64,000 bases of DNA, taken from contig JBJOMY010000003.1 in assembly GCA_046052125.1 (NCBI GenBank), positions 224,001-288,000 on the forward strand, given 5' to 3'. This document shows, one piece after another, positions 4,797 to 24,563 of this stretch; position 1 is the stretch's first letter, and every line of letters begins with the position of its first letter. Origin of the DNA: Cyanobacteriota bacterium. Lineage in GTDB: Bacteria; Cyanobacteriota; Cyanobacteriia; PCC-6307; Cyanobiaceae. The position numbers and the translations under genes are program-made. Under the pieces are notes generated by a model. It saw nothing but the letters and a program-made list of their open reading frames with translations, had not been told where the DNA came from and searched no databases.

Positions 4797-5636
4797 ATGA
4801 GTGATGCCTTTGGCGACTATCTGCGCAACATTGGCCGGATTCCGTTGTTAACAGCTCAGGAGGAAGTGCATCTCGGCACGATCGTGAAAGATTGGATGGA
4901 AAGCGATGCGCCATCCCCTGCCCTGCAACGCCGAGGTCGCCGTGCCCTGCAACGCATCGTGACGGCCAATTTGCGCCTGGTGGTGACTGTGGCCCTGCGC
5001 TACATCCGCCGGCTCAAGCATCTCGCCCATGACCCGATGGATCTCGTGCAGGCCGGCAACCTGGGCCTGCTGCGCGCCGCAGAGAAGTACGACCCCACTC
5101 GCGGCTACAAGTTTTCCACCTACGGCTACTGGTGGATTCGCCAATCGATCAATCGCTACCTGCAGGAGCACAGCGGCAGCATTCGCATCCCTGTCAACCT
5201 GGTGAGCCTTGCTAATCGGGCGGATTCGCTTCAGAGCCTGCGCAGTCAGCCCTTGAGTGTGGATCAGCTGGCTGATGCCCTGGGCGAGTCGCCGGAGCGA
5301 TTGTTGTATGCCATGGCGATTCAGCATCGCAGCAGCACCGTGTCGCTCGATCAGCAACTCTCCGGCAGTGATGGCGACATGACCCTGCTCGATACCGTGA
5401 CCGACGATCATCAGCCGATCATTCACGATGATTACCGCTGGATGCACAGCCAGCTCCAGCACCTCTCAACGCCGGAGCTGATGGTGATCCAATTGCGCTA
5501 CGGCGAAGATAAGCACCGCTCTTTCGCAGAGGTGGCTCGCTTGGTGGGCCGCAGCAAGGATCAGGTGCAGCGTTTAGAGCGTCACGCTCTCACCAAGTTG
5601 CGCAGGCATCTTGCACCTGCGCTCTATCCGCAGTGA
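4797..5636 (+). CDS. Sigma-70 family RNA polymerase sigma factor (group 2, RpoD-like)
   Basis: Region 1.2 DYLRNIGRIPLLTAQEE; ANLRLVV; DLVQAGNLGL; GYKFSTYGYWWIRQ; region 4 HTH. Confidence 0.92.
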   Translation: MSDAFGDYLRNIGRIPLLTAQEEVHLGTIVKDWMESDAPSPALQRRGRRALQRIVTANLRLVVTVALRYIRRLKHLAHDPMDLVQAGNLGLLRAAEKYDPTRGYKFSTYGYWWIRQSINRYLQEHSGSIRIPVNLVSLANRADSLQSLRSQPLSVDQLADALGESPERLLYAMAIQHRSSTVSLDQQLSGSDGDMTLLDTVTDDHQPIIHDDYRWMHSQLQHLSTPELMVIQLRYGEDKHRSFAEVARLVGRSKDQVQRLERHALTKLRRHLAPALYPQ

Positions 5637-5657
5637 GGGCATAGCGCTGGAGATCGT

Positions 5658-5686
5658 GCCCCGGAGATTAAAGCGGTCTCCGGGGT
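5658..5686. terminator. Stem-loop between convergent sigma and RHH genes (possible bidirectional terminator)
   Basis: CCCCGGAGA-N9-TCTCCGGGG 9-bp inverted repeat; no clear U-tract. Confidence 0.4.
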
Positions 5687-12344: not shown

Positions 12345-12563
12345 GTGACTGCTCGCAAACAGCTTTCGATGGTGTTGCCGGCTGAGCTGATTGAGGCGAT
12401 CAAGCAGCGCGCCACGGCTCAGGGGCTGAGCATCACCGCTTACATGTCGGCGCTGGTGCGCGCGGATTTGGGTCAGCCTGCATCGCCTGATCTGCATCAG
12501 CTGGCACAGCAGCTCGATGAGCTCCAGGCCCGTGTGGACGAGCTGGAGCGGTTGTGTCGCTGA
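12345..12563 (+). CDS. Ribbon-helix-helix protein with C-terminal coiled coil
   Basis: RKQLSMVLPAELIEAIKQRATAQGLSITAYMSALV, then heptads LAQQLDELQARVDELE. Confidence 0.75.
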   Translation: MTARKQLSMVLPAELIEAIKQRATAQGLSITAYMSALVRADLGQPASPDLHQLAQQLDELQARVDELERLCR

Positions 12564-12647
12564 GACCTTGAGGAAGCTCTTGATCGCTGTAGATCTGTTG
12601 TAGAACTGCGGCGCGCCGTTTTTGGGTTGGTGGCTGACTTCTCGACG

Positions 12648-12803
12648 ATGCGGGTAAGCCGTAGCAGCCGGATCAGCGTGAACCTCACCCCAGAAGAGCT
12701 GGCTCAGTTCCAAGCCGTTGCTGATGCTGAGGGGCGCAGTGTGAGCAACCTTTGCCATCAGCTGATCCAGGCCTTTCTGGCGCAGCGCAACAGCTCCGAT
12801 TGA
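12648..12803 (+). CDS. Ribbon-helix-helix protein (51 aa, below the ORF-track cutoff)
   Basis: Manual translation: MRVSRSSRISVNLTPEELAQFQAVADAEGRSVSNLCHQLIQAFLAQRNSSD; shares EGRSVSNL with the 5696-5977 protein. Confidence 0.8.
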   Translation: MRVSRSSRISVNLTPEELAQFQAVADAEGRSVSNLCHQLIQAFLAQRNSSD

Positions 12804-12874
12804 GCTGCGGTTGTGCGTGGCAGGCCCTGGCAGGCCCGCAGCCTGCTTTGGCTTAGGTGTCCGTGGAGCCAACC

Positions 12875-13027
12875 ATGCAGCTGTTACATCACTGGGGCTT
12901 TACAGAGCAGGCCGAACGCTGGAATGGCCGGCTGGCCATGCTGGGTTTTGTGATTGGTTTGATCACTGAATTGCTTACGGGCCAGAGCGTGATCGCCCAG
13001 TTGCGGATGCTTTCGCCCTGGCATTGA
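12875..13027 (+). CDS. hli: High-light-inducible protein (Hli/CAB-like, 50 aa)
   Basis: Manual translation: [50 protein letters not shown]; ExxNGRxAMxG motif. Confidence 0.92.
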   Translation: MQLLHHWGFTEQAERWNGRLAMLGFVIGLITELLTGQSVIAQLRMLSPWH

Positions 13028-13542: not shown

Positions 13543-13737
13543 TCACTGGATCTGGGGCCGTTGTAGTGGGGTGTGTGTGCTGCTTGTGCGGCGTTCCAGC
13601 GAGCTTTCGAGCAGGTAGGCCGCCAGGTTGCTGATCGAGCGACCTTCGCGGCCGCTGCGTTCCACCAGGGCCTCGAGGGTGGAATGGGCCACGGTGATCG
13701 TGAGGCGCTGGCTGGAGCGGAAGCTGCTGGAGATCAT
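13543..13737 (-). CDS. Ribbon-helix-helix protein
   Basis: QRLTITVAHSTLEALVERSGREGRSISNLAAYLLE; paralogue of 5696-5977. Confidence 0.82.
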   Translation of the reverse strand: MISSSFRSSQRLTITVAHSTLEALVERSGREGRSISNLAAYLLESSLERRTSSTHTPLQRPQIQ

Positions 13738-13933: not shown

Positions 13934-14551
13934 TTGAGTGTTGTTGTGCTCGATGACCACCGGATGGTGGGGCAGTCCATCGCTGGTGTGTTGTCAGAGC
14001 TGGCTGGCCTGGTGGTTCTTGGCGTCTGCGCTTCGGTGGCAGAGGCCTGTGCCTTGATCCGCCAGTCACCGCCGCAGTTGCTGGTGTTGGATGTGGAGTT
14101 AGGGGCTGAGAACTATCGCGATGCAGCAGATCTGCATCTGCAGCTCAGTCCCCGCGGCGTATTGCTGTTTGTCACCGCCCTCGCGAGCCAGTTCACCCCA
14201 CCAGGAGATCTGGCTGAACGCACCATTGCCGTGGTGGACAAGGCCGAGCCCTTCGATGAGCTGCTGGTGGTGTTGAAGCGCTGGTGGCTGAACAGCCAGC
14301 AGCAGAGCGCCTTGCCGGGATGTTTGCAGCAGCTGCAGGCCATCCAGCTCCTCGCACCCCGCGAGCAGCGGTTGCTGCAGGAGCTCGGCTGCGGATTGCT
14401 CAACAAGGAGATCGCCGCGCGCCTGCAGCTCAGCGTTGCCACGGTGGAGACCTACCGCAAGGGTGTGGCCGCCAAGCTCGGCGTGAGCGGTCACGAGCTG
14501 GTGCGCCTGGCGGTGCTGGCCCGCGCCTTCAGCTGGATCGAGGTGTGCTGA
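13934..14551 (+). CDS. NarL/LuxR-family response regulator (orphan)
   Basis: Receiver VVVLDDH...LLVLDVEL...FVT...DK; HTH LAPREQRLL..LGCGLLNKEIAARLQLSVATVETYR. Confidence 0.9.
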   Translation: MSVVVLDDHRMVGQSIAGVLSELAGLVVLGVCASVAEACALIRQSPPQLLVLDVELGAENYRDAADLHLQLSPRGVLLFVTALASQFTPPGDLAERTIAVVDKAEPFDELLVVLKRWWLNSQQQSALPGCLQQLQAIQLLAPREQRLLQELGCGLLNKEIAARLQLSVATVETYRKGVAAKLGVSGHELVRLAVLARAFSWIEVC

Positions 14552-14848: not shown

Positions 14849-15348
14849 GGATCGAGGTGTGTGGGGCTATCCATGGCCTACGGCTGTCGGGCGGCTTCAG
14901 CGCACCGCGAGCAGTTGTCGCGTCAGATCGACTGCATCTCGGCGGCTATGGCCGATGGCTACAGCACCGAAGAACCGGCTTTGCTGCCTGGCTCTGCCAG
15001 AGCTGCCGGGCTGCCTACAAGCTGAAGGCTGAGCCGTTCAGCCAGGGTCATCTCTGCTTCGGAGACTGCGTAGCAGGCCAGGACCGCTCCAGGTCTCAGC
15101 GTTTGGTGGTGAGGCCACGGGCTGAATGGTCGTTGAGGCTGATGCAGTGCAATCGGTCTTGATACCAGCTTGCTGGCGCAGCTGGCAGCAAATGAAGAAC
15201 AGCATCCAGGCACACATCGCTGATGGGCACGGCCGTGGCCATGAACACGCGACGCTCTGGATGCTGTAGGTGGCGCAGTGCGATCAGATGGCGTTCAGGC
15301 CAACATTCCACGCCAGGGATACTGGTCAGCGGACACGGCTGAGCGAAC

Positions 15349-16059
15349 TCAGATCAAAATGAACTGGTCGGCTGTGATCAGCGGCGCACCCTCAAAGATG
15401 GCGAAGAGTCCACCCTTGTCACCAAAGCCTTTGTCCTCAGCGTTGGCGTTGAAATACAGCCGGTGGGCTGACTCATCATAGATGATGTCTGCATCGGTTT
15501 TCGATGCGCGCCTAAGTTGCTTGCCAGACGAAACACTTTTGAACTCGAGATCGTCAATTCCCTTGAACACGCGGCGAGACAGCTCCAGTTTGTCGCCATT
15601 GGATCCATTGAATCCCATGATTCGATCCACACGCCGGATACCCTTCTTCCGGAAGTAATCCGGAGAATCGAAGCGCAGGTGCAATCCATTACGTTGCAAG
15701 CTTGTGTTTCCTGGGCTTCCGGACAGCGTGCCACCTGGATTTGCCGCAGTTGCTGGGATGCTGCCGCTGTTGCTTGTACTCATATTGTAGTTATGAGTAA
15801 TTGAATTATACTCCTGTGTGGTTGAGCTTAATTGGTAGTTGTAGATGATGGTGTTGGTTGAATAGTCGATTGTTGAGAGAACAGCAACCTGGTTGCCATT
15901 TGATGTATTTGTGTAGCCATTTCCTGTGATCGGGTCCACGGGAGCGGCCGCACTGGTGTCTGCTGGCAGGAGCGGGCCAGCAACTGCAGTTGAAGTTGGT
16001 TCGGCTGGGGTTACTGGTTGTTCTGTGTTGTCAGTGGCTTCTGGAAAGGACTCGCTCAT
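15349..16059 (-). CDS. Putative type I secreted protein with RTX-protein-like C-terminal domain
   Basis: C-terminus DRIMGFNGSNGDKLEL...IIYDESAHRLYFNAN...GFGDKGGLFAIF..APLITADQFILI resembles the tails of cyanobacterial RTX proteins; directly downstream of hlyD. Confidence 0.65.
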   Translation of the reverse strand: MSESFPEATDNTEQPVTPAEPTSTAVAGPLLPADTSAAAPVDPITGNGYTNTSNGNQVAVLSTIDYSTNTIIYNYQLSSTTQEYNSITHNYNMSTSNSGSIPATAANPGGTLSGSPGNTSLQRNGLHLRFDSPDYFRKKGIRRVDRIMGFNGSNGDKLELSRRVFKGIDDLEFKSVSSGKQLRRASKTDADIIYDESAHRLYFNANAEDKGFGDKGGLFAIFEGAPLITADQFILI

Positions 16060-16167
16060 GCCGTGAGTGGTTGCGTGAATGACCTTCAAAAGCTATTGAT
16101 CCTCCTGTTGTCTGATGGCTAGAAACTGCATCAGGTGATGGGCGAAGTTGCCGCACTCTTGTTCAAG

Positions 16168-17439
16168 TCAAGCGCCGCTGAGTAGGCGTAGCTTGGTGAA
16201 GAGAAAGCCGAGAACAGTTGTCTGGCGAGTGATGATCTCTGCCTGCACATCCATGCCATGCCTTAAAGAGCAAGTGCGGTTTGCAGATCGCAGCTCTGTT
16301 GTTGAAGGTTTGAGTGAGATCTGGAAAAGTCCTGCTCCGGTAGGCTGGCTCGATTGACCCTGAGCTGCATCGTTTTGTAGGGTGTCGGCAGAGATATTGA
16401 CCACTTTCGCTTTGAGAACACCGTAGTCTGGATAGGGGCATCCAGTGATGCGTAGGTAAGCGTCCTGGCTTGATCTGATGTTGCCGATGTCTCGGCTGGG
16501 GATGCGCACTTGAATCATTTGGGCGGCATCCTTTGGTGCAATCTTGGCAAGAATCTCACCTGCTCTGATCACCTGCTGAGCGTGGCGCATGCCGCTCACC
16601 AACACAGTACCGGCTGTGGGCGCTTTGATCGTGCTATTGATTAGTGCTCTGTTCACCTCCGCGAGTCGCGCGCGCGTGGATTCTAGTAATTTATTTAACT
16701 CTCGATTCTGGTTGGATGTCTTTCCGCGGTCTTGCCTCATTCCTGCGAGCTGAGCGGTTCCCCGCGCACGCTGTTCTTGCATGGCCTGGCGTGCTTTCGC
16801 CAACTCATTCGATGCCAGTTGATACTGTGCCTTCTTCTCATCCACAACACTGGCTGAAACAGCACCAGTGGTGAGCAGGCTTTGATAACGCTGCAGCTCT
16901 GTCTGCCTGAAGTGCAGGGTGGCACTGGCGTTATCAACGTCTCGAGAAGCGGATACGAGTTGGGCGCGGAGGAGTTCTGATGTCGCTGCACTCTGCTGTA
17001 TCAAATCGTTGGCCTGACCGATGCTGCTCTGTTGCTGTGCGATCGATTCATGCAATTCACTTTCTAATTTCTTCTTTTCATTTTCGAGTTGTCGCCGATC
17101 CAGTGCTGCCAGGGCTTGCCCCTTCCTTACCTCTTGATTCTCTTTAATCCATACGGCTGCCAAGCTCCCATCCAGTTGACTTTGGACAACCGTGTTCTCA
17201 CCGTAGGGCCGAACAACCCCAGCAGCACGAACGGTTTCGCGCCATGGCCAGATCGCTAGGCCAATCAGTCCGGCAGTTGCTGTGATGAGCGCATTGCGTC
17301 CTAACGAGTGACTCCAGCGTCCCAGTGATGGTAAAAAGTCGTCTGTGGCGACCAGCATGATCGCCATATCCTGATCAGCGCGTGCTTCAGGTGCGCTGGG
17401 TTTGTTTGATTGTTGTTGAAGATCGAGATTGCTCATCAT
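16168..17439 (-). CDS. HlyD-family secretion membrane-fusion protein
   Basis: TVRAAGVVRP, VRKGQAL, long coiled coil, IKAPTAGTV, CPYPDYGVLKAKVVNISAD, LRHGMDVQAEI; ATG overlaps the transporter stop (TGATG). Confidence 0.92.
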   Translation of the reverse strand: MMSNLDLQQQSNKPSAPEARADQDMAIMLVATDDFLPSLGRWSHSLGRNALITATAGLIGLAIWPWRETVRAAGVVRPYGENTVVQSQLDGSLAAVWIKENQEVRKGQALAALDRRQLENEKKKLESELHESIAQQQSSIGQANDLIQQSAATSELLRAQLVSASRDVDNASATLHFRQTELQRYQSLLTTGAVSASVVDEKKAQYQLASNELAKARQAMQEQRARGTAQLAGMRQDRGKTSNQNRELNKLLESTRARLAEVNRALINSTIKAPTAGTVLVSGMRHAQQVIRAGEILAKIAPKDAAQMIQVRIPSRDIGNIRSSQDAYLRITGCPYPDYGVLKAKVVNISADTLQNDAAQGQSSQPTGAGLFQISLKPSTTELRSANRTCSLRHGMDVQAEIITRQTTVLGFLFTKLRLLSGA

Positions 17440-19667
17440 CAGCTTGCCGATAAGTAAGGGGAAACAAGTAGGCTTTCTTGTAGAGCACTTGGTTGGTCTT
17501 GCTGTTTCACCTTCCCTTGATCGATATAGATGATCCAATCAGCACGAAGGATGACGGAGGGTCTGTGGCTCACCATGATGGTTGTTTTCCCTTTTCGATG
17601 TGTGAGCAGCTGATTCATCAGGCGCTGTTCAAGCACTGGATCCAGTGCGGAGGTTGATTCGTCTAGGATCACCACAGGTGGGTCGTTGATCAAAGCCCGA
17701 GCCAGGGCTAATCGTTGCCGTTGCCCTCCTGAAAGATTGGCTCCAAACTCGCCAAGAACTGTTCCATAGCCATCGGGTAGCTCTCGGATAAAATCATCAG
17801 CCAATGCAAGCCTGCACGCTTCTACAATCTCTGGAAAGCTAATGGCAGGATGGCTAAATACGAAATTCTCGTAGATGCTCCGATTGAAAAAGTGTGAGTC
17901 TTGAGGCACCAAGACAACTTGCCTTCGCAGGCATTCGAGGCTGAGGTCTCTTGAGCTGAAGGAACCGTAGTGAATGGTTCCTTGTTCCGGTGGATAGAAG
18001 CCAGCGATCAGCTTGCTGATGCTGCTTTTGCCACAACCCGACTGACCGATCAGAGCTGTTGTTAAACCACCTGGGATCTCGACACTGAATCCTTCGAGTA
18101 GTGCGCGACGGCCAGGGTAATGCCAGGTGATGTTCTCACATCTGATCGCAGCCTGAGGGCTAATCTGTGCGTAATGACGATTCTTGCTTAGTGCATCTTC
18201 CGGTTCTCTCTCCATCACCTCTGATAACCGCCGTAGGACAACGCCAGCTGTAATGGCTTCCTGGGAGATGGCGCTCAGTCCCGTCAGGAAGGCTAAAACG
18301 TTAGCCCCCATCCCGTTGAAGGCAAGAAGTTGCCCGATGCTCAGGTCATTGTTGATGACAAAGCTACTGCCATACCAAAGCAAGGCAATTGAGCCAAGAC
18401 CTCCTAGTAATCCAGTGGCTGTACTTTCGTTGAGGCGGAGTTGTGTGCCTGCCCAGCTGAGCCGTGCCAACCTGCCAAAGTTTCGCTGGTACTCCTGCCA
18501 GGCTTGTGGTGTTGCCTCTGTTGTTTTGAGTACCGTCGCTGCTCGAAACACTTCCACCAGATAACCCTGGTTGTCTGCTGCCCCGACCAGTAGTTGCTTT
18601 GTCTTCGTCTGAATAAGTGGTAAAAAGCAGAGATTGCATACCACTACAGCTGTGTAGCACGCGACCGCGGCGATAGCCAAAGGTGCTGAGTAGGCGATCA
18701 TCCAGACCAAAGAAATTGCTGCGATGCATAGCTGGCTCGGTAGGCCGGTAACGACGGCGGTCAACAGCTCGTTGATCTTCTGAATGTCACTGATACGACT
18801 AACAACTTCACCGCTTCGATGGCTTTCAAAGTAGTTGATTGGTAGGCGAAATAAGCGTTGGCCATAATGCAGAATCATCTGCAGCTGCAGTTTCTGGCCA
18901 AAGTGCCCCACCATCTGTCCCTGCACCCAGCCCAGTCCATGGCGGAGTGCAGTGAGCAGCATGATTCCAATGCTCAGCGCCGCGAGCATATGAGTATCTC
19001 CTCTGACCAGCACATCGTCGGTCAGGATCTGCATGAGTACAGGCATGCCTAGGGCGAGGCTGCCGATCACAACATTGAGCAGTAAGGCCTGAGTTAATAG
19101 GCCTTTAAAGGGCTTCACGAACTGGGTGAAGATCCAGATCCCTGGCGTGCCTTTGTCTTCCTCATTCTGAGTAAATCTGGCGGGATCTGGTTCCAGTAAT
19201 AGAAGCACCCCATTCTGCCAATGGTGGAGGAACTCGCGATCACTGAGTTCACGAAGTCCAACTGCAGGGTCAGCTACAACAAGCAGCTGATTCTGATTGC
19301 GGCCATGTAAGACGACCCAGTGGTTGCCGTTCCAATGGCAAATGACAGGGAGTGGTACTTCGTTAATCGATTCAAGTATCGATTCGTCAGCCTTTGCTGC
19401 ACGAGCTATGAGCCCCAGCTGCTCAGCTCCCCGTTTCAGTCCAAGGAGCGTGGTGCCGTTGGCCATAGTGCCGACGGCTTCTCGCACGTTGCCAATGCTC
19501 ACGGCACGACCGTGTTGCGCGCAGATCGTTGCAATGCAGGCTGCTCCGCAGTCCTCTTCGCTGAATTGTCGAACGCAGGCAAATTGCCGTTGCTGATGCG
19601 TCAGGAATTGGCGAAGGCCGTTATGCAAGGTCTTGATTCTGTCCTTGCTGAACATCTGAAGGGGCAT
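17439..19667 (-). CDS. Peptidase-C39-containing ABC transporter (PCAT; SunT/PteB-like)
   Basis: Q..EEDCGAAC catalytic Cys, HWNGNHWVVL, VADPA; TM domain; GQSGCGKS, LSGGQRQR, ILDESTSALD. Start ATG 19667 or 19655. Confidence 0.95.
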   Translation of the reverse strand: MPLQMFSKDRIKTLHNGLRQFLTHQQRQFACVRQFSEEDCGAACIATICAQHGRAVSIGNVREAVGTMANGTTLLGLKRGAEQLGLIARAAKADESILESINEVPLPVICHWNGNHWVVLHGRNQNQLLVVADPAVGLRELSDREFLHHWQNGVLLLLEPDPARFTQNEEDKGTPGIWIFTQFVKPFKGLLTQALLLNVVIGSLALGMPVLMQILTDDVLVRGDTHMLAALSIGIMLLTALRHGLGWVQGQMVGHFGQKLQLQMILHYGQRLFRLPINYFESHRSGEVVSRISDIQKINELLTAVVTGLPSQLCIAAISLVWMIAYSAPLAIAAVACYTAVVVCNLCFLPLIQTKTKQLLVGAADNQGYLVEVFRAATVLKTTEATPQAWQEYQRNFGRLARLSWAGTQLRLNESTATGLLGGLGSIALLWYGSSFVINNDLSIGQLLAFNGMGANVLAFLTGLSAISQEAITAGVVLRRLSEVMEREPEDALSKNRHYAQISPQAAIRCENITWHYPGRRALLEGFSVEIPGGLTTALIGQSGCGKSSISKLIAGFYPPEQGTIHYGSFSSRDLSLECLRRQVVLVPQDSHFFNRSIYENFVFSHPAISFPEIVEACRLALADDFIRELPDGYGTVLGEFGANLSGGQRQRLALARALINDPPVVILDESTSALDPVLEQRLMNQLLTHRKGKTTIMVSHRPSVILRADWIIYIDQGKVKQQDQPSALQESLLVSPYLSAS

Positions 19668-19715
19668 GGGCTCTGCCGAAGTGCTCTTGCGCAAAGGCCA
19701 ACAGTGGCCATTGAG

Positions 19716-19742
19716 AAAGGAGGTCTCATAGGTGAGACCTCC
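19716..19742 (-). terminator. Intrinsic terminator/attenuator between peptide 2 and the transporter
   Basis: 10-bp stem GGAGGTCTCA-N4-TGAGACCTCC followed by TTTCTC on the minus strand. Confidence 0.7.
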
Positions 19743-19768
19743 ACTTAGTAGCTCAGGATTTCAGTGCT

Positions 19769-19981
19769 TCATCCCAGCCAGTTCTTGCCAGCAAGCAGAT
19801 CCATGAGTGTTGTGTTAATGGAGCCTGTGTTGCCTTGACCCACCATGGCGGTGCCTTCTAGCAGGCCTACAGCCGTTCCGACGTTGACCGGTGTGATGAC
19901 TCCCAGGTTGATGCTGGGGAGCACAAGAGCGTATCCACCACCGCTGATGGCTTCGCACTGATGATCGTTCAGGAATTGCAT
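19769..19981 (-). CDS. Double-glycine leader precursor peptide 2 (70 aa)
   Basis: MQFLNDHQCEAISGG / GYALVLPSINLGVITPVNVGTAVGLLEGTAMVGQGNTGSINTTLMDLLAGKNWLG; L-x-D-x-Q-x-E-x-I-x-GG leader; upstream of the PCAT. Confidence 0.85.
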   Translation of the reverse strand: MQFLNDHQCEAISGGGYALVLPSINLGVITPVNVGTAVGLLEGTAMVGQGNTGSINTTLMDLLAGKNWLG

Positions 19982-20001
19982 TGTTTTGTTGGAAAATGCT
20001 G

Positions 20002-20026
20002 AAAAAAGGGACCGACAAGCGGTCCC
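20002..20026 (-). terminator. Intrinsic terminator between peptide 1 and peptide 2
   Basis: Minus strand GGGACCG-cttgt-CGGTCCC-TTTTTT. Confidence 0.8.
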
Positions 20027-20033
20027 GATCTGA

Positions 20034-20258
20034 TCAGAACAGGCTGACGATGACGTTGTAGATGTCAGCGTTGTTGCCCTGGATGGTGCTGGCGAGGGCA
20101 CCGCTGTTGCTCAGGCCGAGCAGGGTGTTGGAGGTGCCGCCAACGGCCCAAGCAGAACCGATATTGCTTTGGCCGATGGCGTTGTAGTTGGCGCCAAAGT
20201 ACACGCCGCCAGTCACCACTTCGCTTTGTGCGTCGGTGAGGAGTTCCAGTTTGGTCAT
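20034..20258 (-). CDS. Double-glycine leader precursor peptide 1 (74 aa)
   Basis: MTKLELLTDAQSEVVTGG / VYFGANYNAIGQSNIGSAWAVGGTSNTLLGLSNSGALASTIQGNNADIYNVIVSLF. Confidence 0.87.
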   Translation of the reverse strand: MTKLELLTDAQSEVVTGGVYFGANYNAIGQSNIGSAWAVGGTSNTLLGLSNSGALASTIQGNNADIYNVIVSLF

Positions 20259-20458: not shown

Positions 20459-20881
20459 ATGGATCCTGGTGCCCTGCGCTTGGGAGCTCTTTGGGCTGCC
20501 TGGCTTTTTGTGATGCTGTTCCATGTGGAGCTTGGCTTAATGCCGCTCTTTCATGGCTTTTCTGTGGAAATCAAGAGCCAGGTCAGTGTCACTCGCTTGC
20601 CGCGTATCTTCTTCGCAATGCTGGTGTATTTCCTAATCCCTGTTCTTGCAATGCTTCTGGCTTTTCATGCGGTTTCAGGCCCTATCGCCTGGAGTGGTGC
20701 ATCTGGCTGGAGAGCGGCTCAGTTCTGGCTAAGCGCCATGTATAGCGGCACAAACGTTGCTCATCTGATCGCTGATATCAAAATTCCCGATGCACGGATG
20801 GATCAGGTTGTGTTGATGCTGGTCCTGACCCTGATTGGTTTGCTCCTGAATTGGCAAGCCTGGCTCTGGTGGCAAGGGTGA
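20459..20881 (+). CDS. Hypothetical membrane protein (about 4 TM)
   Basis: Four hydrophobic segments with intramembrane His (FHVELG, FHG, AHL); stop overlaps the ZIP start (GTGA). Confidence 0.7.
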   Translation: MDPGALRLGALWAAWLFVMLFHVELGLMPLFHGFSVEIKSQVSVTRLPRIFFAMLVYFLIPVLAMLLAFHAVSGPIAWSGASGWRAAQFWLSAMYSGTNVAHLIADIKIPDARMDQVVLMLVLTLIGLLLNWQAWLWWQG

Positions 20882-21633
20882 CGACTTTCTCTGTCATCGT
20901 GTTGGGTTCGCTACTGATGAGTGTGATTGCGCTTGTTGGTGCCATCACCATCGTTCTGCCACCCCGACGCCTTCAGCAACTCCTGATTCCGCTGGTATCG
21001 CTTGCCGCTGGTTCACTGATGGGTGGTGCTCTATTTCACATGATCCCCGAGAGTTATGGGGCCATGGATGCGCGTGTCGCAGGATTTTGGGTGGGTGCTG
21101 GATTTACGTCCTTTTTGGGGTTGGAGATCGTTTTGCATTGGCATCATTCTCATCGCAATCGTCAACACGGCCTTGGCACCCTGCTCAGGCTCGATCGCGA
21201 GCCTTTGGCCTTGTTGATCTTGATCGGTGATGCTCTCCACAATTTTATCTGTGGTATTGGCATTGCTGGCACCTATCTGATTGATCCTGCTTCGGGAGTT
21301 GCAGCTTGGCTGGCTGCGGCAGCCCACGAGATCCCTCAGGAGCTCGGTGACTTCGGGGTGTTGTTACACAGCGGCTGGTCGCGTCGCCGTGCATTGGCTT
21401 GGAATTTCATTTCGGCCCTTAGCTTCCCGCTGGGAGCTTTGCTGGCTTGGCGTTTTCAGGCCGTTTTGCCCTTGGCCCCCTTGGTGCTCTTGGCAGCAGG
21501 AAACTTTCTCTACATCGCGGCTTCCGATCTGGTTCCCGAAATCAAGGCTCAGGATTCCTTGTTGCAGGCCTTGACCAGCTTTTCCTGGTTTGCCGGCGGC
21601 CTGCTGGTGCTTTGGTTGCTTGCTTCAGTCTGA
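20878..21633 (+). CDS. ZIP-family divalent metal transporter
   Basis: AAGSLMGGALFHMIPE, HWHHSH loop, GDALHNF, AHEIPQELGDFGVL, AAGNFLYIAASDLVPE. Confidence 0.92.
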   Translation: MTTFSVIVLGSLLMSVIALVGAITIVLPPRRLQQLLIPLVSLAAGSLMGGALFHMIPESYGAMDARVAGFWVGAGFTSFLGLEIVLHWHHSHRNRQHGLGTLLRLDREPLALLILIGDALHNFICGIGIAGTYLIDPASGVAAWLAAAAHEIPQELGDFGVLLHSGWSRRRALAWNFISALSFPLGALLAWRFQAVLPLAPLVLLAAGNFLYIAASDLVPEIKAQDSLLQALTSFSWFAGGLLVLWLLASV

Positions 21634-22383
21634 ATGCTGTCCGGCTTCTGTGATTTCCTTCCCCGCACTCTGAATCCTGTGCCGGTGCGGTTGATTGCCG
21701 AAATGCTTGCGGGCAATGGCTAATAGCTCAGCATCCGTGCAGGCAGTGTCATCCACGTGTCCTAGTTCCACACGCTGCACTATTGAAGGGTGGTGTTGTT
21801 CCAAGTGCTTCCGCAGCAGCTGGCGCAGATCGCTTTCTCCATGTCCATGCCCCAGCAGCAGCACCCGATCTGCCTCTAACACCGCTTGACTGAGTTGGTT
21901 CAGATAGGTGGAGTCCAGCGGTGCTCGCTGTCCGGCGACATCTCGGTCATGGCGATGACTCAGGCGCTGATGGCTACTCCAAAGGCCGTGGGGTACGAGC
22001 GAGGTGCTTTCCAGCTCATCGCCAGTCAGCCACCACAGCTTTGCGCCTCGGTGATCCAGGTGGATGACGAGCCGTTTGGATTGATCACCTCGTTCAGATC
22101 GTGGTTCTTCCGTTGGGTGCTGGGGGGTGATGCCGGCTTGTTGTAGAAATCTCCGCAACCGCAGCACTCCTTCTTCGTCGACATAGGCATGCTGCATACC
22201 CGATGCGGCGTGCAACACCACCGAATTGCCGGTGTTGAGTTCCAGCTTCAAGCGATGATCGGATAGGTGCTCCACGGATGCACCCAGTTGCAGCAGCAGT
22301 GCTTCCACATCTGCCATACGCAGCCCGTGCTGCAGGGGATGGCTGAAGAGCGCCTGCAGCGTGTGGGCATGCTGGTGTTTCAT
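21625..22383 (-). CDS. Fusion of an N-terminal HicA-like domain and a C-terminal bacterial eRF1-like (baeRF) domain
   Basis: HAHTLQALFSHP...DVEALLLQLGA.VEH...VVLH...LRRFLQQAGITP (HicA pattern); LVIHLDHRGAKLW...YLNQLSQAVLEADRVLLLGHG...HLEQHHP...TDAELLAIARKHF (eRF1 domain-2-like pattern). Confidence 0.7.
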   Translation of the reverse strand: MKHQHAHTLQALFSHPLQHGLRMADVEALLLQLGASVEHLSDHRLKLELNTGNSVVLHAASGMQHAYVDEEGVLRLRRFLQQAGITPQHPTEEPRSERGDQSKRLVIHLDHRGAKLWWLTGDELESTSLVPHGLWSSHQRLSHRHDRDVAGQRAPLDSTYLNQLSQAVLEADRVLLLGHGHGESDLRQLLRKHLEQHHPSIVQRVELGHVDDTACTDAELLAIARKHFGNQPHRHRIQSAGKEITEAGQHSD

Positions 22384-22454
22384 CACGTTGGTGGTGATCA
22401 CTTAAGGCAACGCTATGGAACCCAGACCGACCTGGCGTTGTTCTGCAGCTGGCT

Positions 22455-23489
22455 TCAACAGATGCGCGGCAGCTGTTCACCTCGCTGTAGCTCCAGCGGC
22501 CTGAGGACACCCAATCCGTTGCGCAGACTCACTGGATGCCGCCGATTAACCCCTGTCATCCGAGCTGATGCCGCTTGCACAACTCCGATCCTGTCGGCAT
22601 CGCGTTGGTGACGTCGCAGCACCGATAGAGCGCGTTCCGCATCAGCCTGGGGGCACATCACCAGCATGCGACCTTCATTCGCCATCGCCAGCGGATCCAG
22701 GCCCAGCAGATCGCAGGCGCTCCGTACAGGTTTGCTGAACGGAATCGAGGTTTCGTCGAGTTCCACCGTGCACTGTGCTCCCCTTGCGATTTCGTCAATG
22801 GCGCTGGCCAACCCGCCGCGCGTGAGATCCCTGAGGCAGTGCAGCGCTATCCCTTCAGCGAGTAAGTCCTGCACCGTGCTGTGCAGTGGTGCCAGGTCGC
22901 TCTCAAGCGCGCAGCGAAATCCCAGCTCCTGCCGTGCCATCAGGATCGCTACGCCGTGTCGTCCGAGATCGCCACTCACCAGCACCGCATCGCCTGGCTG
23001 TAGAGCCGATGGATGGATGGTTTGCCCGTGCTCCACCACCCCAATGGCGCTGGTGTTGATGAAGAGCCCATCGCCCTTGCCCCGCTCCACCACCTTGGTA
23101 TCGCCCGTGATCACCTTCACACCGCACTGATCAGCCGCCGCTCGGATCGAATCCACCACCCGCTGCAACGTGGCGATTGGCAAGCCTTCCTCCACGATTA
23201 GTCCCAGGCTCATTGCAGCGGCTTTGGCACCCGCCATGGCTAGATCGTTCACGCTTCCAAAGACAGCCAGGCGGCCGATGTCGCCTCCCGGGAAGAACAA
23301 CGGTCTCACCACGTAGGAGTCGGTGGTGAAGGCCAACTGCTGCCCAGGGCTTGCGAACACCGCGGCATCGTGCAGTACGCCATCCGCTGGTCCGAAGGCC
23401 GGCAGCAAGAGCTCCTGAATCAGCTGCTGGCTCAACCGCCCACCTCCACCGTGAGCCAGTTGGATCGTGGCATTGTTAGCTCCCATCAT
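22455..23489 (-). CDS. hypE: Hydrogenase maturation protein HypE
   Basis: LAHGGGG, FTTDSYVVRPLFFPGGDIG, VNDLAMAGA, TGDTKVV, RDLTRGG, ANEG, C-terminal PRIC. Confidence 0.97.
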   Translation of the reverse strand: MMGANNATIQLAHGGGGRLSQQLIQELLLPAFGPADGVLHDAAVFASPGQQLAFTTDSYVVRPLFFPGGDIGRLAVFGSVNDLAMAGAKAAAMSLGLIVEEGLPIATLQRVVDSIRAAADQCGVKVITGDTKVVERGKGDGLFINTSAIGVVEHGQTIHPSALQPGDAVLVSGDLGRHGVAILMARQELGFRCALESDLAPLHSTVQDLLAEGIALHCLRDLTRGGLASAIDEIARGAQCTVELDETSIPFSKPVRSACDLLGLDPLAMANEGRMLVMCPQADAERALSVLRRHQRDADRIGVVQAASARMTGVNRRHPVSLRNGLGVLRPLELQRGEQLPRIC

Positions 23490-24563
23490 TCAGCGTTGGT
23501 AGCGGTAGTAGGCCGCGCAGGCTCCTTCGCTCGACACCATCGGCGCCCCCATGGGTGCATCGGGTGTGCAGCGGGTACCAAAGCTTGGGCAATCACTGGG
23601 CCGGAGCAGGCCCTGCAACACCAGACCACTCGGGCATGTTTCTGGCGTTGCGGCAGTGCTGCTGGCGCTCGTTCCTTGTGCTCGGTGTACCGCCAACCGA
23701 TCGAATGGCGCCCTCAGCTGATAACCGCCGGCTCGAATCAGGCCTAGCCCCCTCCAGCGCGTGTCCACAGGTTCAAACACCTCCCCCAACAGCCGCTGGG
23801 CGCCTGGATTGCCGCCGCTTCTCACCGCGTTGACGTAGGCGTTCTCCAGTTGATGTCGGCCACTCTCGAGTTGCCGAACACAGCGCAGGATTCCCTGCAG
23901 CAACTCCTCCGCTGTGAAGCCGGTGATCACCACCGGCCGCTGATGCTTCTGCACCAGGGTCTTGAGTTCAGCGTCTCCCAGCACCGTGCACACGTGGCCG
24001 GCCGCTAACACCCCTTCCACGGCGCAGGCGGGATCGCTCAACAGCTGATCCAACACTGGGGCGACTCGCACATGGGCCACCAGCAGCTGCAGGTTGGACA
24101 ACCCTGCTGTTAAGGCCTGCTGTGCCAGAAGGGCTGTGGCTGGTGCGGTGGTTTCAAAGCCAACGGCGAAGAACACCACATGGCGGCCGGGATGTTGCCG
24201 GGCCAGGGTCAGCACATCCAACGGCGCGTAGACGATCCGCACATCTGCACCGACGGCGCGCAGGCTCAGCAGATCGCTGCCGGTGCTGCCAGGTACCCGC
24301 AGCATGTCGCCATAGGTGCACAGGATCACCCGTGGATCTTGCGCCAGAGCCAGGGCCTGGTCGATGCGCTCAAGAGCTGTGACGCACACCGGGCAGCCGG
24401 GGCCGTGGATCAGGGTGATCGCTTCAGGAAGGAGCTGATCGATGCCATGGCGCAACAGGGCGTGGGTTTGGCCGCCGCACACCTCCATCAGCGTCCAGGG
24501 CCGGCTGCACTCGGCATGGATCTGCTGGAGCAGCTCGCTGGCGGTGGTGTTCGCGCTGCTCAT
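23490..24563 (-). CDS. hypD: Hydrogenase maturation protein HypD
   Basis: MEVCGGQTH, HGPGCPVC, GFETT, CPSFGTRCTP, MVSSEGACAAYY. Confidence 0.97.
   Translation of the reverse strand: MSSANTTASELLQQIHAECSRPWTLMEVCGGQTHALLRHGIDQLLPEAITLIHGPGCPVCVTALERIDQALALAQDPRVILCTYGDMLRVPGSTGSDLLSLRAVGADVRIVYAPLDVLTLARQHPGRHVVFFAVGFETTAPATALLAQQALTAGLSNLQLLVAHVRVAPVLDQLLSDPACAVEGVLAAGHVCTVLGDAELKTLVQKHQRPVVITGFTAEELLQGILRCVRQLESGRHQLENAYVNAVRSGGNPGAQRLLGEVFEPVDTRWRGLGLIRAGGYQLRAPFDRLAVHRAQGTSASSTAATPETCPSGLVLQGLLRPSDCPSFGTRCTPDAPMGAPMVSSEGACAAYYRYQR

Follow-up and report, generated by a model that had tools for sequence, protein, structure and literature searches.

To our knowledge, the ebfG system of Synechococcus elongatus PCC 7942 is the only one that has been functionally tested among the cyanobacterial gene clusters that combine peptides with a double-glycine (GG) leader and a peptidase-containing ATP-binding cassette transporter (PCAT). 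Its four GG-motif proteins, EbfG1-4, are needed for biofilms to form, their secretion requires the C39 cysteine of the transporter PteB, and their mature parts are described as having no homologues in other cyanobacteria (PMC4997328; here and below, sources cited by PMC accession were available in part and are cited for what those parts contain). EbfG1-3 form amyloid-like material, with a hotspot of the type A-Phi-N-I-Pi that appears as LAFNIG in EbfG2 and as AQNIG in EbfG4 (PMC9981879). The genes ebfG1-4 are followed by pteB and then by an HlyD gene, and the best PteB homologues of Anabaena, three in number, show 54-58% identity (PMC12267927); in a table of 145 GG-peptide clusters, the ebfG genes stand under cluster group III (Wang et al., 2011; PMC3140520). 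Here we describe a cluster of five genes (pepA, pepB, PCAT, HlyD and p246) in a 64,000-nucleotide stretch of contig JBJOMY010000003.1 of a Cyanobacteriota bacterium, the whole of which is referred to as the window. The genome analysed is denoted G000, and other G- and L-numbers denote the genomes and loci of our comparison set.

Locus L044 of genome G076, which was located in a class-wide genome draw through a 14-nt primer part from the supplement of PMC9981879, contains four tandem GG peptides with the strings LAFNIG, AFNIG, AINIS and AQNIG, followed by a PCAT and an HlyD gene, and from its sequence we regard it as either the ebfG locus or one very closely related to it. The window cluster has the same order, tandem GG-leader peptides-PCAT-HlyD, as ebfG1-4/pteB/Synpcc7942_1132 (HlyD), an order found as well in group III of Wang et al. 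(2011; PMC3140520). Its PCAT is 54% identical over 703 residues to the PteB of L044, and the catalytic-cysteine motif is kept, EEDCGAACIAT aligning residue for residue with the PteB homologue. The peptides resemble EbfG in their leaders, which can be aligned (hhalign 68%, 22 columns for pepA; 24%, 23 columns for pepB), and in their Cys-free, low-charge cores of small and polar residues, with no modifying enzyme and no annotated immunity gene. At the level of sequence, then, the predicted export chassis is the same as that of ebfG, and the cargo is unrelated in sequence and alike in make-up. By analogy with EbfG, we tentatively favour, with somewhat less than even confidence, the reading that self-associating surface or matrix peptides leave the cell here through an exporter of the EbfG/PteB type.

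Gene order and predicted export route

The five genes stand head to tail on the minus strand (window 15349-20258), as follows:

20034..20258, minus strand: pepA, 74-residue precursor with an 18-residue double-glycine leader MTKLELLTDAQSEVVTGG and a 56-residue core (open reading frame (ORF) and sequence)
20008..20026, minus strand: GC-rich 7-bp hairpin and T6 run just 3' of pepA, terminator- or attenuator-like (terminator scan)
19769..19981, minus strand: pepB, 70-residue precursor with a 15-residue double-glycine leader MQFLNDHQCEAISGG and a 55-residue core
19719..19742, minus strand: 10-bp hairpin with a weak T tail in the gap between pepB and PCAT (fold computation)
17439..19694, minus strand: PCAT, with C39 cysteine-peptidase, ABC membrane domain and ATPase (Pfam, NCBIfam)
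16168..17538, minus strand: HlyD-family membrane fusion protein (Pfam HlyD_3, 8.8e-14, and Biotin_lipoyl_2; TIGR01843, 6.3e-42)
15349..16089, minus strand: p246, 246 residues, no named family, likely start ATG 16059

An earlier note, made from the DNA letters alone, had placed these parts and quoted several strings from the peptide cores; the parts lie where it put them and the strings are present. Its description of a leader-cleaving PCAT/HlyD exporter of two unmodified peptides, which is a prediction, agrees with the domain matches. The intergenic gaps inside the operon measure 52, 74 and 78 bp. The start of PCAT is uncertain (TTG 19694 or ATG 19667), and the peptide genes, with their GG leaders, lie beside it, 74-101 bp upstream; the likely start of HlyD is the ATG at residue 34, the first base of which is the final base of the PCAT stop codon.

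PCAT has the domain composition of its class, a C39 peptidase domain at the N-terminus joined to an ABC membrane domain and an ATPase (Peptidase_C39, 8.5e-34; ABC_membrane, 2.8e-30; ABC_tran, 4.1e-28; all pass their cut-offs), and its peptidase is predicted to be active, since the catalytic cysteine is retained. The C39 domain is the sole one in the genome, pepA and pepB are the only GG peptides found by family hidden Markov models (HMMs) and a leader regular expression in the six-frame translation of the whole genome, and the GG is invariant in 12 of 12 rows of the pepA alignment (A1) and in 54 of 54 rows of the pepB alignment (A3). This shows pepA and pepB to be the sole detectable double-glycine substrates predicted for the genome's sole C39 transporter. 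Four TolC-like ORFs are present elsewhere in the genome. From the families to which these parts belong, it seems close to certain that the C39 domain would cut the pepA and pepB precursors after Gly-Gly, and that the 56- and 55-residue cores would leave the cell unmodified and in one step, by way of the ABC part, HlyD and a TolC-like channel whose gene lies elsewhere.

The hairpin after pepA folds with -13.1 kcal/mol (z -2.5) and that after pepB, which was not called by the terminator scan, with -20.9 kcal/mol (z -3.0; none of 200 shuffles equally stable), and both would probably yield more peptide than transporter message. Contigs from all four RNA libraries (4 studies) cover pepA and pepB; three of the libraries cover p246 and two cover PCAT/HlyD, and a single contig extends from inside pepA across pepB and ~500 nt into the PCAT gene. 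These contigs, which record presence only and from which neither levels nor transcript ends can be read, are consistent with expression of pepA and pepB. Word depth differs between the contigs of the peptides and those of the transporter, but contig depth does not serve to rank genes, and a stretch upstream of pepA without coverage is likewise given no weight.

The peptide family and its possible role

Both cores contain no Cys and carry a net charge of -1 each, in agreement with the earlier note, which had called them Cys-free and nearly uncharged. They have few charges and are rich in S/T/A/N/G/V/I, with Asn at 14% (pepA) and 9% (pepB) against 2.5% in the genome's long ORFs, and Gly at 14% (pepA) and 18% (pepB). 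The two peptides are distant colinear paralogues (hhalign probability 96%, E 2.3e-9, 62 columns, leader through core) and have two core motifs in common, N-x-I-x-Q-[SI]-N-x-G-[ST]-A and A-x-V-x-Q-G-N ... N-x-[LI]. The earlier note had seen repeated units within a single peptide; comparison of the first half with the second gave an hhalign probability of 0.5% in both peptide families, so that these units are better seen as two motifs shared by the paralogues, each with a Q-x-N. Between G000 and G021 the ratio of nonsynonymous to synonymous substitution rates (dN/dS) is 0.07 for pepA and 0.22 for pepB, and by this measure both are real genes under purifying selection. Identity between the same two genomes is 89% for pepA, higher than that of PCAT (85%), HlyD (70%) and p246 (65%), which is not what diversifying antagonism predicts.

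The two peptides belong to a family that lacks annotation. A single-sequence search with pepA matched 6 proteins among 6 candidates (5.8 billion searched), and a 12-row pepA profile run over 1.84 billion gave 15 representatives with E <= 0.001, of which 8 reached 1e-10 or less. The 7-row pepB profile matched 48 proteins among 289 candidates, all unnamed or 'hypothetical' and one labelled Cyanobacteriota; out of 401 genomes drawn from the host's taxonomic family it matched 38, which fall into 8 of 64 genera. Its strong matches (E < 1e-25), six in number, all lie within the host's genus. The weaker relatives, from other genera and G033, come as 3-4 tandem peptides that are shorter and often cationic, and the PCAT behind them is 59-61% identical. 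Searched up to E 10 in Pfam and NCBIfam, with HMMER filters that discard most matches above 0.1, neither pepA nor pepB matched any family, bacteriocin and microcin family models included.

The number of GG peptides per locus ranges from two, as in the window, through three in G007 (one on the opposite strand; L012:5021-6379) and three to four in other genera, to at least four (L034:5484-6932 of G027, four in tandem), L051-L053 being among the loci compared, and tandem paralogues are likewise found in ebfG1-4. Among the extra members are short forms, Arg-tailed and strongly cationic, in which the motif pair PQxNxG ... QxN ... NxI persists. Long A-type variants have their additional residues in the Gly-rich stretch separating the two motifs. 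The long A-type peptides (L012:5790-6086 of G007, L034:6359-6649 of G027 and L035:10197-10490 of G008) end in N-F-G-F-S-x-x-[FIV], an aromatic strand of alternating pattern closed by a hydrophobic residue. This end may resemble the C-terminal beta-signal known from outer-membrane proteins. In G001, the pepA orthologue (L010:2927-3146) is frameshifted after about residue 46; the same subtype is intact in metagenome proteins (P0056), and the broken reading is also found as a predicted protein (P0062). Beyond the window, at ~577.8-579.4 kb of contig C1, weak pepA tblastn matches recur every 489 nt, pointing to a large ORF that contains tandem repeats of ~163 residues.

We rank the reading of self-associating surface or matrix peptides first because no immunity ORF is shared by six loci (see below), the nearest transporter that has been characterised is PteB, the peptides are tandem paralogues, the cores are polar, Asn/Gly-rich and predicted to be unstructured as monomers, and a surface-type secreted protein is co-conserved. 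The cores, unstructured alone, may act outside the cell as EbfG1-4 do, this being the weak step of the proposed mechanism; once secreted, they would favour cell-cell adhesion or microcolonies, and p246, if co-secreted, would act with them at the cell surface. The preference of the earlier note for structural fibre subunits over bacteriocins is thus kept in our ranking; amyloid formation, the other part of its proposal, stays a candidate property, pepB having an AlphaFold2 (AF2) pLDDT of 50.

Several results weigh against the matrix reading. The mature cores have no detectable homology to EbfG, hhalign aligning the leaders only. The peptides are thus not plain EbfG orthologues; plain orthology is what the earlier note had named as refuting its proposal. 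An EbfG HMM found nothing in the host genome (best E 0.27), HlyD is 29.5% identical to the HlyD gene downstream of pteB, and curlin or any other family was unmatched at E up to 10. The AF2 monomer of pepB (54 rows; pLDDT 50.3, pTM 0.19) is unstructured, and no computation gave a sign of self-assembly. In the hydrophobic periodicity of the family profiles neither the alpha nor the beta band is significant (p 0.21-0.40; beta band, p 0.21 and 0.40). The pepB core has a single GxxxGxxxG stretch (GTAVGLLEG), which on its sequence is a candidate glycine zipper; membrane-active peptides are known to carry such zippers. By language model, pepB has as neighbours clusters that bear the automatic name 'Bacteriocin' (0.89, no more than a lead), the island distribution and cassette diversity described below fit antagonism equally, and the same export architecture serves class II microcins (PMC12219008) and Cdz toxins (PMC5380434). 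A complex prediction for two pepA and two pepB cores, run without controls, scored 0.01 against a mark of 0.32 and speaks neither for nor against binding or stacking.

p246, immunity genes and the spread of the module

In six orthologues of p246 (alignment A5), the Pro/Thr-rich N-terminus is poorly conserved, a DPITG ... [NT]TSN-x-N motif (consensus NTSNGNQVAV) is invariant, and the last ~110 residues are well conserved. The AF2 model gives the C-terminal domain a pLDDT of 61-87 and residues 1-124, at the disordered N-terminal end, one below 50, and no membrane segment was found in the protein. There was no match in Pfam and NCBIfam, the RTX nonapeptide repeats (HemolysinCabind) included, nor among PDB sequences at E up to 10. 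By structure, the best Foldseek match was the serralysin PrtC (E 0.19; none at E <= 0.001), and the top 8 in VIA-align were RTX/C-terminal parts of AlgE-type epimerases, RsaA (S-layer), CylK, the lipase LipA, the alkaline protease AprA and the MpAFP adhesin. Their Z of 3.7-5.3 falls short of the bar of 8 set by the tool, and may reflect a common arrangement. The ESM Atlas model of p246 compared with cyanobacterial proteins gave TM scores of 0.53-0.54 (rows 6, 7 and 9), and in these rows the aligned part passes the bar for HemolysinCabind or Peptidase_M10_C. The p246 profile matched 111 proteins among 8000 scored candidates, all unnamed but one fragment, called 'Ca2+-binding RTX toxin-like protein' by its source, and a p246-type C-terminal domain also ends other proteins of the genus, including metzincin-like ones with HExxH and Gly/Asp-rich repeats. 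These comparisons point, weakly to moderately, to a C-terminal ~110-residue beta domain of RTX / Peptidase_M10_C type, and on such models we read p246 as a protein secreted in the manner of a type I secretion system (T1SS). The RTX tail assigned by the earlier note thus has weak to moderate support at fold level and is left without a family match.

Against the peptide families p246 gave an hhalign value of 0.1%, so it shows no sign of a peptide-like template segment. Its profile (A5) recovered the orthologues of G021 and G027 as a positive control, and found nothing in G076 nor in four genomes with related cassettes. A more elaborate proposal is that one PCAT-type T1SS handles two cargo classes, the GG-leader peptides and, through a C-terminal RTX-type signal, p246, which would anchor or nucleate a two-subunit pepA/pepB Asn-ladder surface fibre. 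We hold this to be highly unlikely; if true, it would place a curli-like nucleator-and-subunit logic on a type I secretion chassis, and would set single-cell versus microcolony life of freshwater picocyanobacteria.

Used as a query, p246 matched 12 of the 45 genomes of the genus at E <= 0.001. A full-length orthologue is present in seven (G000, G021, G027, G007, G001, G008 and G032, the G032 copy being cut by a contig end), and the remaining five have the C-terminal ~100 residues only, within larger proteins. The order peptides, PCAT, HlyD, p246 is kept in 7 of 7 clusters by tblastn (the G032 cluster is split over two contigs), with identities to the window of 74-85% for PCAT, 54-70% for HlyD and 42-59% for p246. 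In G000, G021, G007, G027 and G008 the cluster stands beside hypE, a conserved 258-residue ORF and a pair formed by mem140 and a ZIP transporter gene, inserted on either side of that pair, and in G001 and G032 it stands beside clpB. As the same five-gene order recurs in two contexts, the five genes move together, in one module of which p246 is a part. The genome (2.64 Mb, 10 contigs) has a G+C content of 0.64-0.67 per contig, against 0.51-0.55 across the cluster and 0.54-0.58 onward to ~22000; the cluster lies in a strain-variable island. Near-identical DNA occurs in metagenome runs from freshwater, rivers and estuaries (of 24 rows listed, 20 hold part of it, 15 studies), and the taxonomic family also includes genomes of 1.6-1.7 Mb; we infer that the host is a freshwater picocyanobacterium, probably of the Cyanobium/Synechococcus group.

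In the published toxin systems to which the cluster may be compared, a small membrane immunity gene stands beside the toxin gene (PMC12219008, PMC13188072, PMC5380434); verified microcin immunity genes adjoin the microcin (PMC12219008), CdzI lies in the cdz operon (PMC5380434), and one such gene, the two-transmembrane (TM) neighbour of MccAB1, is a formerly unannotated ORF of 56 residues (PMC13188072). For this reason, ORFs of 30-160 residues were scanned for hydrophobic 19-mers in six loci. This hydrophobicity scan, which found three segments in the 4-TM gene mem140 as a control, found no small membrane-segment ORF outside the large genes in 5 of the 6 loci and none common to the loci, which weighs against a classical microcin. 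In the window, the hydrophobic ORFs are solely antisense inside HlyD or PCAT; this, together with the short intergenic gaps, bears out the earlier note, which had seen no obvious immunity gene. In G007, hydrophobic ORFs at 5268-5676 of L012 (those at 5338-5676 on the minus strand) lie beside the extra opposite-strand peptide, are not conserved in other loci, and could be an immunity candidate for that peptide only.

The divergent mem140 itself (20459-20881) was considered as an immunity gene and rejected, because it occurs in 32 of 45 genomes and the cluster in 7 of 45. It overlaps the ZIP transporter gene, lies on other contigs in G001 and G032, and is absent from the clpB-context copies; since it is present with or without the cluster, it stands outside the module. 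In eight drafts mem140 lies within ~2 kb of a contig end (G011:C58, G017:C28, G018:C48, G064:C111, G026:C21, G019:C3, G065:C268 and G015:C115); assemblies may break at the variable island, and some 'cluster-free' drafts may simply lack the assembled region.

Modifying enzymes were also looked for, and, as the earlier note had it, no LanM, YcaO or radical-SAM gene was found in window 12-24 kb, nor YcaO genome-wide. Directly downstream of p246, at 14962-15353 (minus), lie two fragments of a degraded PGM1-like ATP-grasp gene, which is intact at the same place in G021 (466 residues; ATP-grasp_IQCH, PreAtp-grasp, PGM1_C) and broken by stops in G008; a core paralogue (~40% identical) is found elsewhere in most genomes of the genus (41 of 45 matched). 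We rejected it as a modifying enzyme or module part, as it is degraded here and in G008 and absent beside the G027 cluster; it also stands beside mem140 in two genomes in which p246 was not detected, G011 and G017.

On the hypE side, the 258-residue ORF (21625-22401, minus) has no Pfam/NCBIfam match and always adjoins hypE and hypD in the five loci compared; the coordinates of the latter two are:

22455-23489: hypE
23490-24563: hypD

On the other side, three small ORFs of ribbon-helix-helix/CopG type lie within 1.4 kb, at 12345-12563 (+), 12627-12803 (+) and 13543-13737 (-), with scores of 1.9e-6 and 6.8e-7 for RHH_5 and of 3.6e-5, below its cut-off, for CopG_antitoxin, and are adjoined by a 56-residue Hlip-like chlorophyll-binding ORF (12857-13027).

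A LuxR-type response regulator at 13934-14551, 800 bp beyond the cluster, brings in the question of signalling. The cores could be secreted signals or other small effectors (density or differentiation cues, grazer or phage decoys), neither structural nor toxic, in keeping with the varied functions that cyanobacterial GG-motif proteins may have, cf. HetC/PatS (PMC4997328), and with the lack of an immunity gene. However, the response regulator is part of the conserved backbone, being also near the cluster-side flank in G027, and is therefore not specific to the module; known short signalling peptides do not resemble these cores, which are 55-56 residues long, have a strong Asn/Gly bias and occur as 2-5 paralogues per locus; and the co-conserved RTX-type protein would be left without a role. 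We consider a signalling function distinctly unlikely.

Comparison with described systems

Class II microcins of the MccV CvaAB type likewise use a PCAT and a membrane fusion protein, with TolC encoded elsewhere, for a GG-leader peptide with an unmodified core below 10 kDa (PMC12219008), and the Cdz system of Caulobacter crescentus likewise has two different small proteins beside a dedicated T1SS and no modification genes (PMC5380434). pepA and pepB could in the same way be a two-peptide bacteriocin against picocyanobacteria or heterotrophs, diffusible and class II microcin-like or contact-dependent and CdzC/CdzD-like, with immunity provided by p246 or an unlinked gene, or needless as the producer would lack the receptor. 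The Cdz host is planktonic and lives in freshwater, where its authors argue that diffusible toxins are of little use, and the Cdz peptides (86 and 84 residues) aggregate on the producer's surface (PMC5380434); such a cell-bound toxin would suit the planktonic freshwater host of the present cluster. The patchy occurrence (7 of 45 genomes, two contexts, low local G+C), the diverse cassettes beside a 75%-conserved PCAT, the GxxxGxxxG stretch of pepB, the Atlas neighbours named 'Bacteriocin' and the LcnG-beta match of the A-type peptide of G027, which is sub-threshold (E 0.0072; 16.9 bits against a cut-off of 29.4), would all agree with a toxin.

Nevertheless, no small membrane ORF is conserved across the six loci and the operon gaps are too small to hold one, p246 has no membrane segment, the cores are weakly hydrophobic without significant amphipathic helical periodicity, and pepA is the most conserved of the parts compared, so that we regard a bacteriocin as unlikely. 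In comparison with class II microcins, the cluster differs in having no adjacent membrane immunity gene, no family-model match and an added RTX-type gene; its host is a cyanobacterium, and in the available part of the microcin survey cyanobacteria have 0 mentions (PMC12219008). As regards Cdz, there is no counterpart of the immunity gene CdzI, and CdzC/CdzD contain extended, very hydrophobic glycine-zipper repeats, whereas the polar cores described here hold one GxxxGxxxG, in pepB, the two being compared by description (PMC5380434).

A class II microcin can also do both things, since MccAB1 of Acinetobacter baumannii, exported via PCAT and membrane fusion protein, forms biofilm amyloid fibres and kills (PMC13188072). 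A dual function of the pepA and pepB cores, as matrix scaffold and as harm to unprotected cells, would be compatible with all the evidence for the matrix and the bacteriocin readings. However, MccAB1 has its adjacent two-TM immunity ORF (PMC13188072), of which no equivalent was found here, and the cores have no sequence relation to named microcin families; we hold it to be the least probable of the readings considered.

The earlier note had also drawn a kinship with the Q/N ladders of curli and Fap. Recurring Q-x-N / Q-G-N tripeptides, small Asn/Gly-rich secreted subunits and two related subunits in adjacent genes are indeed reminiscent of curli (CsgA/CsgB) and Fap; the kinship itself was not supported, as no Curlin_rpt or other family match was found at E up to 10 (with most matches above 0.1 dropped by the HMMER filters) and internal repeats are unsupported. 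Export differs as well, curli and Fap using Sec plus CsgG or FapF, against a T1SS and a GG leader here. The available part of an article on aggregation of Baltic picocyanobacteria (PMC13630569) holds nothing on EbfG, secretion, amyloid, pili or bacteriocin, and word searches of the literature returned no description of the pepA/pepB peptide family or of p246.

The ebfG system thus stays the closest in architecture, and the differences lie in the cargo. There, four peptides of 60-77 residues are Ser/Pro-rich; here, two cores of 55-56 residues are Asn/Gly-rich (9-14% N), and the A-Phi-N-I-Pi hotspot is absent, pepA having only QSNIGS. What appears to be new is the cargo peptide family and its co-conserved partner p246. 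It is not a new kind of system, since GG-peptide/PCAT/HlyD clusters have long been known to be common in cyanobacteria (145 in PMC3140520), and, as the order peptides-PCAT-HlyD is that of the ebfG operon and of group III, the 'distinct arrangement' of an undescribed system claimed in the earlier note reduces to p246.

If the peptides are adhesive or fibre-forming, the cluster would offer a genetic handle on microcolony and aggregate formation, and through it on carbon export and losses to grazing. Should they be toxins, the lack of a linked immunity gene would be unusual in itself, and either outcome would help to judge the reliability of the name 'bacteriocin' where it is given to cyanobacterial GG peptides. 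Set beside ebfG, the module represents a second, sequence-unrelated peptide family on a PteB-like exporter, strain-variable within an abundant freshwater picocyanobacterial group and strictly co-conserved with its partner p246.

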